A stretch of 12,440 bases of DNA from a virus (Duplodnaviria; Heunggongvirae; Uroviricota; Caudoviricetes). Below are positions 9,599 through 11,762 of this stretch, piece after piece. The notes under the pieces were generated by a model. It worked only from the letters and a program-made list of their open reading frames with translations. It was not told the origin of the DNA and did not search any database. Positions within the stretch are counted from its first letter, which is position 1; the number at the start of each line of letters is the position of its first letter. The translations under genes and the position numbers were made by a program. The stretch lies in the IMG/VR virus record IMGVR_UViG_2698536348_000004. The stretch is one strand, 5' to 3'.

Positions 9599-9658
9599 CT
9601 TCATCGTCACATAGCTGGTAACCAGTGGCCTGAAGAGACGTTTGGGTAAGGAGGATAG

Positions 9659-10000
9659 ATGGCGTTCAATGACCTTGAATATCAAGCAGTAAAAAAAGAA
9701 GTTCACCAATTCATTGAAAGCATAAGGCCGCCTGAACATATCCGCAATGAACTGGATATTGTTTATAGCATCAATGACCAAACGATAGATATCGGCGAAC
9801 AGCGCCCCGTGTGGCAGGGCAATCCAGGTGAAACAAACATCCTGCCATCAGCAAGAATCAAGTACATACGTTCTCTGGATAGATGGAAAATCTATTGGAT
9901 GCGGAAGGATATGAAATGGCATCAGTACAGTACTGAACTTTCGCTGACTGATGCGCTTGAGCTTGTGCGTGCTGACCCGGATTGCTGCTTCTTCGGATGA
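9659..10000 (+). CDS. Hypothetical protein (113 aa), first gene after cI
   Basis: Strong SD TAAGGAGG 5 nt before ATG 9659; same strand as cI; no recognised motif. Confidence 0.65.
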   Translation: MAFNDLEYQAVKKEVHQFIESIRPPEHIRNELDIVYSINDQTIDIGEQRPVWQGNPGETNILPSARIKYIRSLDRWKIYWMRKDMKWHQYSTELSLTDALELVRADPDCCFFG

Positions 10001-10067
10001 GTGAAGAGACGTTTGGATGATGGATGGTCGCAGAGATGCGGCCTGATTCTAAAATAGGATATAAAAA

Positions 10068-10529
10068 ATGAGAATACTAGGTGTTAGAGCGGCGCCCAAA
10101 GTTACATCTTTTGTTGTATATTGCACTAATGAGTCTGCACTCAAATGTGTTGATGTTATTAAAATACCTTCGACCTTAGACACACCAGAAAAATTAAAGT
10201 ATGTGAGAAATAACATCCTCGACATTCTTAATTTATATAATGTTGAATTAGCTGCCATACGCGTTACTGAATCAAACTCTGATAATCTTAGCATTGACCG
10301 CCTTTATATAGAAGCTGTTATTCAAGAAGCATTTTCAAGCAGTGATGTAAGAAAATATTACACTATTAGAAAATCTGGCATGAAATCATCATTGAACCTA
10401 ACAGAGATCGAGTATAAAGAAATATTGAAGTCACACCGCAATATAAATGGAATCGATAATTCTGGTTTTACAGCTGAAACAAATGAAGCTGTTTTGGCTG
10501 CACTATCTGCGGAGGTAAGGGGATGCTAA
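10068..10529 (+). CDS. Hypothetical protein (153 aa), translationally coupled to the kinase gene
   Basis: AGGA 10 nt upstream of ATG 10068; stop TAA (10527-10529) overlaps the kinase ATG (10523-10525) in the sequence ATGCTAA; very AT-rich. Confidence 0.65.
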   Translation: MRILGVRAAPKVTSFVVYCTNESALKCVDVIKIPSTLDTPEKLKYVRNNILDILNLYNVELAAIRVTESNSDNLSIDRLYIEAVIQEAFSSSDVRKYYTIRKSGMKSSLNLTEIEYKEILKSHRNINGIDNSGFTAETNEAVLAALSAEVRGC

Positions 10530-11569
10530 CTCCATACAAAAGAGCTGATGTAGAATTCGAATGGATTAGTGATCTAGAAGAACAGGGTTGTTTTTCAAAA
10601 GTATATCTGGCTCATGACAGACACCTAGCTCATGACTTGGTGATTAAAGAAATAGAAAAAAAAGAAAACACTAACCACGACGACTACTTTAATGAAGCAA
10701 GGCTTCTCTATAAACATGCACATCCAAATATTGTGCAAGTTCAGTATGCTGCTCAATGTGAGAGCAATATCTATATAGCCATGCCATTTTATCATAATGG
10801 TTCGCTAAACCAATTAATGAAAAAAAATAATCTTACAAGCAGGGAGATAATACGGTATTCCATTCAATTTTTAAGTGGACTTTATCATATACACTCAAAA
10901 GGTCTTATGCATTTTGATATAAAACCTAATAACATTATGATATCAAACAGAAATGAGGCCATGCTATCTGACTTTGGATTATCTCAGTTAGTCAATGAGG
11001 AATCGAGAGCTGCGCCTGAGTTTGGATATCATTTTCATGTGCCACCGGAATATTTTTCTTTATCAACAAATGATTATAATTTCACATATGACATATATCA
11101 GGCAGGATTAACCATATATAGAATGTGTGTTGGACATGATAATTTTGAAAGAGAAAGATCTGCATTTAGCACGATTGAACAACTCAGAGAGTCGATAATT
11201 AATGGCTGCTATCCATTAAAAGAGTATCCTCCCCATATACATAAAAAATTAATAACAATAGTGAACAAATGCATTCATGTAGATCCAAATGAAAGATATC
11301 AATCCGTACTAGATGTACTAAACGATCTCTCAGCTATAAGTGATGGCGTTCTTGACTGGCGTCTACAGATGACGAAACCAACTAACGGCACATGCGAATG
11401 GCAAAAAAAGTCTGGGGACGCTATACTGTCTATAGTTTTTGACGCAGAAAATTCGTCTACTACTGGTTTTCGTTTATACGATGATGGGCGGAAAAGGCGT
11501 GCTACGAACTTAACAATATCCTCAGGATGTACCCCTACAAAACTGTATAGGTTATTAAAGGATAACTGA
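10523..11569 (+). CDS. stk: Eukaryotic-like Ser/Thr protein kinase (Stk-like, non-RD type) with a C-terminal extension
   Basis: 348 aa; motifs LVIKEI (Lys42), HFDIKPNN (Asp132, Asn137), SDFG (Asp150), PPE (activation segment); residue numbers counted from the ORF translation. Occupies the cI-pL slot where 933W stk is reported. Confidence 0.8.
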   Translation: MLTPYKRADVEFEWISDLEEQGCFSKVYLAHDRHLAHDLVIKEIEKKENTNHDDYFNEARLLYKHAHPNIVQVQYAAQCESNIYIAMPFYHNGSLNQLMKKNNLTSREIIRYSIQFLSGLYHIHSKGLMHFDIKPNNIMISNRNEAMLSDFGLSQLVNEESRAAPEFGYHFHVPPEYFSLSTNDYNFTYDIYQAGLTIYRMCVGHDNFERERSAFSTIEQLRESIINGCYPLKEYPPHIHKKLITIVNKCIHVDPNERYQSVLDVLNDLSAISDGVLDWRLQMTKPTNGTCEWQKKSGDAILSIVFDAENSSTTGFRLYDDGRKRRATNLTISSGCTPTKLYRLLKDN

Positions 11570-11571
11570 TC

Positions 11572-11736
11572 ATGAAAAAGCGCGAGGAAGTAAGCAAGCT
11601 GCCTCGCAGACGTGATGCAGCATTAGCGGTTCCCTACAAAAAAGATGAGTTCATAAGCCCTTCTGATGACAAAAAATTTTCAAAGGCGAAAAGTTTTACA
11701 TCTACATCTCTAAAAGATAAATACTTTAAAATCTAG
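11572..11736 (+). CDS. Small basic protein (54 aa), not on the ORF track
   Basis: ATG at 11572, 2 nt after the kinase stop, AAGGA upstream; translation MKKREEVSKLPRRRDAALAVPYKKDEFISPSDDKKFSKAKSFTSTSLKDKYFKI; stop TAG at 11734-11736 abuts the terminator. Confidence 0.45.
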   Translation: MKKREEVSKLPRRRDAALAVPYKKDEFISPSDDKKFSKAKSFTSTSLKDKYFKI

Positions 11737-11762
11737 CCCGGCCTCAGCGCCGGGTTTTCTTT
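11736..11762 (+). terminator. Rho-independent terminator closing the cI-kinase operon
   Basis: CCCGGC (11737-11742), loop CTCAGC, GCCGGG (11749-11754), followed by TTTTCTTT. Confidence 0.8.

Follow-up and report, generated by a model that had tools for sequence, protein, structure and literature searches.

The Stk anti-phage locus of phage 933W in a mosaic lambdoid phage: a probable combination of a DUF3024 module and a three-gene kinase module

Introduction

The Rex exclusion system of phage lambda consists of a sensor, RexA, and a membrane channel, RexB. Its genes lie in the slot between cI and pL/N, are transcribed together with the repressor in the lysogen and bring about abortive exclusion, as described in passages of PMC3564112 and PMC6356687, the latter of which presents Rex as a two-component exclusion system. 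Here we analyse the equivalent slot in a 12,440-nucleotide (nt) stretch of a Caudoviricetes genome (IMG/VR record IMGVR_UViG_2698536348_000004; hereafter the window), in which four genes, orf113, orf153, a protein kinase gene and orf54, follow cI at positions 9599–11762. The locus is the published Stk anti-phage locus of Shiga-toxin phage 933W; it is not a new cassette and was already known. Whereas it shares its slot, its co-transcription with the repressor and its abortive mode of exclusion with lambda RexAB, the kinase module has no sequence or fold relationship to that system. The reading that we favour, and that taken as a whole we consider likely, is that two independently mobile modules adjoin here, one of them a three-gene kinase system in which the partner proteins control the kinase.

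The primary paper on Stk is reportedly that of Friedman et al. (2011, Mol Microbiol 82:567, pmid 21985444), and its HK97 exclusion is taken here from papers that cite it. Stk is counted, in an excerpt of PMC8008677, as one of two characterised phage-encoded protein kinases. According to passages of PMC3564112, the kinase of 933W shares its transcript with cI and makes infection by HK97 abortive; those of PMC3681748 state that HK97 infection switches Stk on and that uninfected cells have little or no activity. Stk exclusion and Rex are also treated in part of PMC6356687, and an excerpt of PMC6989128 reports that a 933W lysogen excludes phage lambda about a million-fold and that swapping the lambda immunity region relieves this exclusion, for which its authors cite the Stk paper. 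In the literature that we searched, published work on the 933W locus concerns the kinase alone and not its partner genes, and neither the silencing of Stk nor the sensing of HK97 is addressed in any paper found.

Two further kinases, staphylococcal Stk2 and Escherichia coli PD-T4-6, are said to have been described as stand-alone genes (by Depardieu in 2016 and Vassallo in 2022, respectively). Both are, like Stk, Hanks-type kinases that serve as abortive-infection effectors, whereas Stk has a C-terminal domain of its own and two obligate neighbours for which PADLOC holds no model. MAD6 of the methylation-associated defence system (MADS) is likewise a defence-system kinase and is the best PADLOC match to Stk (6.7e-50), but it is a protein of about 610–660 amino acids (aa) that belongs to a large methylation system, and no other MADS genes are present at the Stk locus.

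Results

The cassette is the Stk locus of phage 933W

A megablast search with window positions 8800–12440 found 39 phage records with a query coverage of at least 80%, and the best matches, at 99.8–99.9% identity, include phage 933W together with its Stx1 and Stx2 relatives. Compared with the 933W genome (NC_000924), the window carries four substitutions across 8800–12333 and is 99.9% identical there. Stk (0 of 348 aa) and the orf54 protein do not differ from their 933W counterparts, whereas the orf113 and orf153 proteins each differ by one residue; the kinase (cluster P0076) is 100% identical to 933W Stk (AAD25427 / NP_049482). The four open reading frames (ORFs) are annotated in AF125520 as L0084, L0083, stk and L0081, flanked by pM, oR, tM and nutL. 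We transferred the 933W annotation by a constant offset (window position = L001 position + 7299, L001 being our handle for the locus), and the order cI, L0084, L0083, stk, L0081, tM between cI and N aligns with it base for base.

Because the Stk protein and DNA match 933W and the ORFs are already annotated in AF125520, the core of the finding is already known. An initial annotation of this DNA, made from its letters, had put forward 933W Stk as a precedent for a kinase in this slot and missed that the sequence is itself of the 933W type: it is the same gene. The four ORFs and the exclusion kinase of that annotation are upheld, its interpretation being right in part, and the cassette that it could not match to a characterised system proved to be the known 933W locus. 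It was correct in regarding the accompanying ORFs as uncharacterised, since no paper dealing with them turned up in the literature that we searched. Much of the remainder of the window departs from 933W. Only 56% of the left 8.8 kb (1–8800) matches 933W, with 97% identity where it does, and the window phage is a mosaic in which an immunity region of the 933W type is combined with a nin/Q region that differs (Q: Pfam Antiterm, PF03589). Locus, gene order, terminator and nutL are thus those of 933W, whereas the window phage differs in being such a mosaic and in having its N gene broken by an IS629-type element.

The operon begins with pM, the cI maintenance promoter equivalent to pRM, predicted from the 933W annotation at 8856–8883 (plus strand; L001 1557–1584), and with the operators oR1–oR3, placed around pM at 8828–8898 on the same basis. 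cI (8891–9598, plus strand) codes for a 235-aa repressor with helix-turn-helix (HTH) and S24 peptidase domains that is 100% identical to 933W CI. All on the plus strand, it is followed by orf113 (L0084; 9659–10000), coding for a DUF3024 protein of 113 aa; orf153 (L0083; 10068–10529), coding for a RuvC-fold protein of 153 aa; stk (10523–11569), coding for the 348-aa kinase; and orf54 (L0081; 11572–11736), coding for a small basic protein of 54 aa. The orf153 stop and the stk start overlap by 7 nt, and orf54 starts 3 nt past the stk stop. The cI operon ends at the intrinsic terminator tM (11735–11766, plus strand), whose hairpin at 11735–11756 has eight pairs, six of them G-C, is followed by a T-run and begins at the orf54 stop codon, at the same site at which the 933W record marks tM.

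This layout agrees with the initial annotation, which had placed four co-oriented ORFs after cI in the cI-to-pL slot equivalent to that of rexAB and had closed the cassette with a strong terminator. Its expectations that the genes are expressed with cI in the lysogen, and that a kinase in this slot acts in phage exclusion, are borne out for 933W by the passages of PMC3564112 on co-transcription and HK97 introduced above.

Stk and its neighbours in bacterial and viral genomes

A profile of orf153 homologues, searched in bacterial contigs representing one genome per species, identified 79 loci from Gamma-, Beta- and Alphaproteobacteria, Bacteroidota, one cyanobacterium and one myxobacterium. Directly downstream of the orf153 homologue, 77 of the 79 encode a full-length Stk homologue (35–61% identity, C-terminal domain included); of the two exceptions, one contig ends too soon and the other locus (L080) has ORF fragments only and is probably decayed. 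The reverse search, with the kinase C-terminal domain against IMG/VR, returned 60 viral loci, of which 58 have orf153 upstream of the kinase and at least one of the other two ends at a contig edge. The same pair occurs in Bacillus phage SPbetaL7 (35% and 40% identity), with a 4-nt overlap and a 60-aa ORF behind it. Overlaps of 8, 4 or 1 nt between the stop of the orf153 homologue and the start of the kinase gene were present in 68 of 78 pairs, and the pairwise identities of the two proteins were correlated (Mantel r = 0.87, a value reached in 0 of 1000 permutations, none of which exceeded 0.19).

A third gene accompanies the pair. At the kinase stop, 72 of 75 loci carry a same-strand ORF of 49–72 aa with a median net charge of +6, compared with 22% at random positions of those loci. 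In the window this place is taken by orf54, whose small size and basic character (16 Lys and Arg versus 8 Asp and Glu residues) had been recognised in the initial annotation and whose protein belongs to PHROG 4063, of unknown function. The orf54-type ORF is the third component of the module, conserved in position and fast-evolving in sequence. These data show the kinase (about 345 aa, with a C-terminal domain of its own) as one of three translationally coupled genes that form a widespread module, the other two coding for a RuvC-fold protein (about 150 aa) and a basic protein (about 60 aa).

The module was found in 225 of 5426 complete E. coli genomes (about 4%). Its genomic settings are typical of defence loci: the neighbours in Pseudomonas are Abi_2 and a reverse transcriptase with PRTase, with an integrase adjoining, and in Elizabethkingia an LlaJI-type restriction-modification system and ArdA, whereas in Klebsiella and Proteus it occupies the post-repressor slot of Rac-like and lambdoid prophages. 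PADLOC v2 recognises at the locus only a generic kinase match and a DUF3024 candidate and has no model for the partner genes. The three-gene architecture was not described in the literature that we searched (RuvC-like with kinase and anti-phage, PD-T4-6 with kinase, and HK97 defence kinases from 2020), the coverage of which is incomplete.

This distribution also bears on the idea that the cassette serves lysogenic conversion or virulence by acting on host physiology or on eukaryotic cells, which would fit a eukaryotic-like kinase carried by Shiga-toxin phages of enterohaemorrhagic E. coli. We consider such a role very improbable: the same module is present in bacteria from soil, the sea and plants as well as in a Bacillus phage, it lies beside restriction-modification, Abi and retron-like genes, and no signal peptide or secretion feature was noted in the cassette. 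Consistent with this, passages of PMC3681748 report that stk is without effect on the attaching-and-effacing phenotype.

The DUF3024 gene and the kinase module

The orf113 protein matches Pfam DUF3024 with 108.9 bits (cut-off 24.9; 2.1e-31) and the PADLOC candidate PDC-S43 (PDLC05018) at 5e-42 over positions 1–113 of 115. We found no mention of DUF3024 in the literature that we searched, and PDC-S43 is a candidate only, for which one strain survey but no report of a defence phenotype was found. The gene is bracketed by a perfect 15-nt direct repeat, TGAAGAGACGTTTGG, identified by a repeat search, with the left copy at 9631–9645 and the right copy at 10002–10016 (both plus strand), the latter at the junction with the kinase module; two matches were obtained in 0 of 200 shuffles. 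Homology to other phages breaks off near this repeat, at 9637 and 10010 in SE1, at 10021 in Stx2_716 and at 10007 in viral contig L129, and the repeat may be a scar or a substrate of the recombination that moves these genes. Base composition changes at the same place: cI has a GC content of 45.2% and orf113 one of 44.7%, and the value steps from 45% to 36% at about 10020, between the DUF3024 gene and the kinase module, stays at 35.7% over orf153, stk and orf54 (10022–11736) and is 48.6% at the start of N. The sharp step substantiates the AT-rich orf153–kinase–orf54 segment of the initial annotation, which had missed that orf113 lies outside the module of the other three genes both compositionally and evolutionarily.

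Each part also occurs without the other. The Salmonella P22-like phage SE1 shares with the window only the stretch 9637–10010, at 85% identity, within the gene order cI, DUF3024, ParA-like ATPase (L084 2981–4054) and gp24. The Stx2a phage Stx2_716 has the downstream repeat copy only; it matches the window from cro to 10021 and resumes at 11737, at the start of the terminator, with a 993-bp insert coding for a 285-aa NYN-domain protein (L085 3990–4847; a predicted RNase) in place of the kinase module. Conversely, viral contigs L128–L137 match only 10007–11762, covering orf153, stk, orf54 and the terminator at 97% identity, and there the module immediately follows an unrelated S24 repressor whose neighbours are of the YdaS/YdaT type, DUF3024 being absent. 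We therefore divide the cassette into module A (about 9637–10010; DUF3024) and module B (about 10007–11762; orf153, stk, orf54 and terminator), a division that forms part of the same reading and shares its standing as likely.

Elsewhere, DUF3024 is the first gene after a prophage repressor and the cargo behind it varies. An MqsA-like gene cluster follows it in Kluyvera, and a Rouxiella badensis prophage (L160 3352–4342) has two tandem DUF3024 genes after its S24 repressor, with a DUF333 fragment between them. In Yersinia ruckeri (L161 4001–5447), DUF3024 lies directly upstream of a P63C-domain gene in an island near smpB. A P63C-domain protein is also encoded in the nin region of the window (3921–4988, minus strand); its link to the Y. 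ruckeri pair may be coincidence. The slot after cI and DUF3024 acts as a hotspot of varying cargo that is probably defensive.

The initial annotation had treated the cassette as a unit, and a four-component system made up of the DUF3024, RuvC-fold, kinase and small proteins would account for several observations. The four-gene order stands behind three different repressor alleles in Proteus mirabilis and P. penneri prophages, at 38–69% protein identity; DUF3024 accompanies the kinase in 34 of the 60 viral loci; and in complete E. coli genomes the two parts are about equally frequent (225 and 227 of 5426 for the kinase module and DUF3024, respectively). Such co-occurrence is explained if both modules favour the slot after the repressor. 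The two parts differ in GC content and boundaries and are largely independent in distribution. In addition to the GC step, the repeat around the DUF3024 gene and the L129 group with its DUF3024-free module, 78 of the 79 genome loci have the kinase module without DUF3024. Among phage records, DUF3024 occurs in 144 and orf153 in 41, with unrelated cargo beside DUF3024 (ParA-like in SE1, NYN in Stx2_716, MqsA-like in Kluyvera and P63C in Yersinia). We consider a single four-component system unlikely, and two modules sharing one slot remain the reading that we prefer.

In plants, a Ser/Thr kinase is inhibited by the bacterial effector AvrPto, and a sequence match in the Protein Data Bank (PDB) raised the orf113 protein as an AvrPto-like kinase inhibitor. 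We rejected this match as probably due to chance because it is not significant (E 0.07) and DUF3024 mostly occurs without any kinase.

The RuvC-fold partner of Stk

Fold comparison assigns the orf153 protein to the RuvC / RNase H-like fold, with the bacterial RuvC structures 4ld0 and 6lw3 (PDB) for comparison, and RefSeq, PGAP and PHROGs label it a RuvC-like Holliday junction resolvase. Only this comparison reveals RuvC: the match to Pfam RuvC (PF02075) has 14.2 bits against a cut-off of 22.2 (E 0.042) and covers the N-terminal half only, no NCBIfam RuvC model matched, and a profile search against PDB sequences gave nothing significant. Sequence identity to the two bacterial RuvC structures is 12–15%. 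The first strand reads G-V-R-x-x-P, compared with G-I-D-P-G in RuvC, and the Arg is present in 80 of 80 homologues. The catalytic tetrad of E. coli RuvC (D7, E66, D138 and D141) is consequently incomplete: Arg occupies the D7 site, and E68 (at the E66 site) and E140 are kept, while the residue after E140, which would match D141, is hydrophobic, the C-terminal equivalence being drawn by motif. A strongly conserved polar set (R7, R47, D52, R65, E68, R78, E82, Q86, E87, S91, S92 and E140) speaks for a genuine site of binding or regulation and against decay of the gene.

Since the first catalytic Asp has given way to an invariant Arg, the orf153 protein is likely non-catalytic, its two-metal nuclease chemistry lost, and the resolvase label of L0083 is probably misleading as to function. 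Could it nonetheless be a working phage RuvC-type Holliday-junction resolvase that merely adjoins the kinase? The database labels and the fold would suit such an enzyme, yet we find it improbable. Besides the Arg and the subthreshold Pfam score, orf153 belongs to the cI operon, which is expressed in the lysogen, rather than to a lytic one; in 77 of 79 loci, defence islands outside phages among them, it is tied to the kinase; and the nin region of the window already codes for a RusA resolvase (2413–2775). It differs from RuvC in sharing a lysogen-expressed operon with a kinase and in having Arg where RuvC has a catalytic Asp. Judged by its catalytic residues and its Pfam score, the protein should not be filed as a resolvase.

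The kinase and related enzymes

Stk scores 158.8 bits against Pfam Pkinase (cut-off 31.7; 2.2e-46), in agreement with the eukaryotic-like kinase of 348 aa in the initial annotation, and combines a kinase domain (residues 21–260) with a family-specific C-terminal domain of about 85 aa. The two catalytic residues guessed in that annotation were well chosen, K42 being the Lys of VAIK and D132 the catalytic Asp of HFDIKPNN. K42, H130-F-D132-I-K-P-N-N137 and D150-F-G are the motifs of Stk, and K42, HFDIKPNN, DFG and PPE are near-invariant in the family, the length of which is uniform at 337–353 aa over 543 clusters.

In conventional tyrosine kinases the catalytic Asp is followed by Ala-Ala-Arg or Arg-Ala-Ala in place of Lys-Pro-x. 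Stk has D-I-K-P-N-N, a loop of the Ser/Thr type, and lacks the tyrosine-kinase signature (HRDLAARN / HRDLRAAN). Passages of PMC3681748 and PMC3564112 name it a tyrosine kinase, at odds with this loop, and Stk may have dual specificity.

None of the four cassette proteins reaches an NCBIfam family cut-off. Stk falls below those for MAD6, PknB-type and PglW kinases, with 122 bits against the MAD6 equivalog NF047741, which requires 460. Many PADLOC PD-T4-6 profiles match Stk, the best at 1e-37, within the kinase domain only (residues about 20–276), and these profiles also catch housekeeping PknB-like kinases (PMC11514479).

Other features of the window

The window covers an early region of lambdoid type. 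Its minus strand codes for Q, RusA, YbcO, an antirepressor, the P63C protein, NinB, P, O, cII and cro, and its plus strand for cI, orf113, orf153, the kinase, orf54 and then the start of N. Beyond the cassette, the nutL site of the pL transcript, used by N, is predicted from the 933W annotation at 11993–12059 (plus strand). N (12225–12333, plus strand) is broken after its first 36 codons; identity to 933W N stops at 12333, and the remaining 107 nt (12334–12440; strand not assigned), which diverge from 933W, are the end of an IS629-type insertion sequence (TGAACCGCCCCGGG...). This end matches an element annotated as IS629 in AP012531 and is 99% identical to part of Stx2_716; in Stx2a_F422 the same end lies downstream of an intact N, so that the two insertions occupy different sites. 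Loss of N should leave a prophage poorly inducible, and its cI operon, stk included, should still be expressed.

Downstream of Q, at the position of stx in 933W, a 252-aa ORF (612–1370, minus strand), situated in a very AT-rich part of the sequence (30–38% GC), codes for a protein resembling a multi-pass membrane protein. It has no Pfam or NCBIfam match and could be a further acquisition in the late-promoter slot. ARAGORN found no tRNA genes in the window.

Discussion

The three-gene composition of the kinase module suggests how Stk might be controlled. As others have shown, the operon (cI, L0084, L0083, stk and L0081, up to tM) is expressed in the lysogen from the repressor promoter. The RuvC-fold protein, having apparently lost its nuclease chemistry, would be the probable regulatory or sensing subunit of Stk, either silencing the kinase in the manner of an antitoxin or recognising a phage trigger, or DNA structures made by that trigger. 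The small basic protein, which evolves fast, would act as a third partner in regulation or as a substrate. On its release, the kinase would phosphorylate many cell proteins, and growth would stop before the phage completes its cycle.

Several findings weigh against parts of this reading. The small downstream ORFs split into families (46, 11, 4 and smaller) whose profiles are not significantly similar to orf54: in BLAST, orf54 groups with Proteus only, the profiles of the two large families give E above 1, and the small ORF of SPbetaL7 has no similarity to orf54. Because profile searches do not join these families to orf54, conservation of the small ORF is one of position, size and charge only. 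No informative fold match was obtained for the C-terminal domain of the kinase. The equivalence of R7 with RuvC D7 rests on the N-terminal strand motif and, although the fold match supports it, the alignments are weak (hhalign E 0.037 with low probability, and the subthreshold Pfam match); given the invariant E68, E82, Q86, E87 and E140, the orf153 protein may instead have an unusual active site. Finally, the Proteus prophages keep all four genes in order, the only such case at low identity; some link between DUF3024 and the kinase module may therefore exist, but we read the arrangement as both modules favouring the same slot.

Kinase toxins with upstream antitoxins exist, HipBA being an example, and the orf153–Stk pair might be a toxin–antitoxin-like addiction pair in which exclusion follows from shut-off of the antitoxin, with no specific sensing by the orf153 protein. 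As in HipBA, a small upstream gene overlaps the gene of a larger enzyme, a layout typical of type II systems (68 of the 78 pairs overlap by 8, 4 or 1 nt, and the window pair by 7 nt), and uncontrolled HipA-type activity stops growth; orf153 and the kinase are also strictly co-inherited. The little or no Stk activity that passages of PMC3681748 describe in uninfected cells would suit a silenced toxin. HipA, however, is not of the Hanks kinase family, HipB is an HTH repressor whereas the orf153 protein has a RuvC fold and neither the HTH nor the ribbon-helix-helix fold of typical antitoxins, and here there is a third gene. The conserved constellation R7, R47, D52, R65, E68, R78, E82, Q86, E87 and E140 exceeds what a simple plug would need, and exclusion is said to require a single HK97 gene, pointing to specific triggering. 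We regard a pair of this kind as possible, if doubtful; it overlaps with our preferred explanation and differs from it only in whether the orf153 protein senses.

Sensing would have a candidate target. Exclusion of HK97 by Stk is said to depend on one particular HK97 gene, gene 41. By gene order (Gp40, erf, HK97p32, Gp43/kil; NC_002167 24175–24780, L086 4176–4781), gene 41 codes for an Erf-like single-strand annealing protein. Literature searches for gp41 together with 933W or Stk found no paper, and the papers that cite the Stk work give no detail on the trigger. If gp41 does trigger Stk, the trigger would, by gene order, be a phage recombinase. Erf, or branched DNA produced by Erf, could plausibly be recognised by a catalytically inactive junction-resolvase fold, which would then release the kinase. 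We tentatively propose that the RuvC-fold pseudo-nuclease detects the recombination machinery of the infecting phage within a three-component system in which Stk is the effector.

Abortive infection mediated by a kinase, in the rex-equivalent slot of Stx phages, has its type example in this locus, the recovery of which by a sequence scan is a rediscovery; what the neighbouring genes add is that L0083 and L0081 supply concrete candidates for the control of Stk and for sensing. Because the same three-gene module is widespread, in defence islands and prophages of several phyla and in a Bacillus phage, a mechanism found in 933W would generalise, and, once found, would add a multi-gene model to defence-annotation tools.

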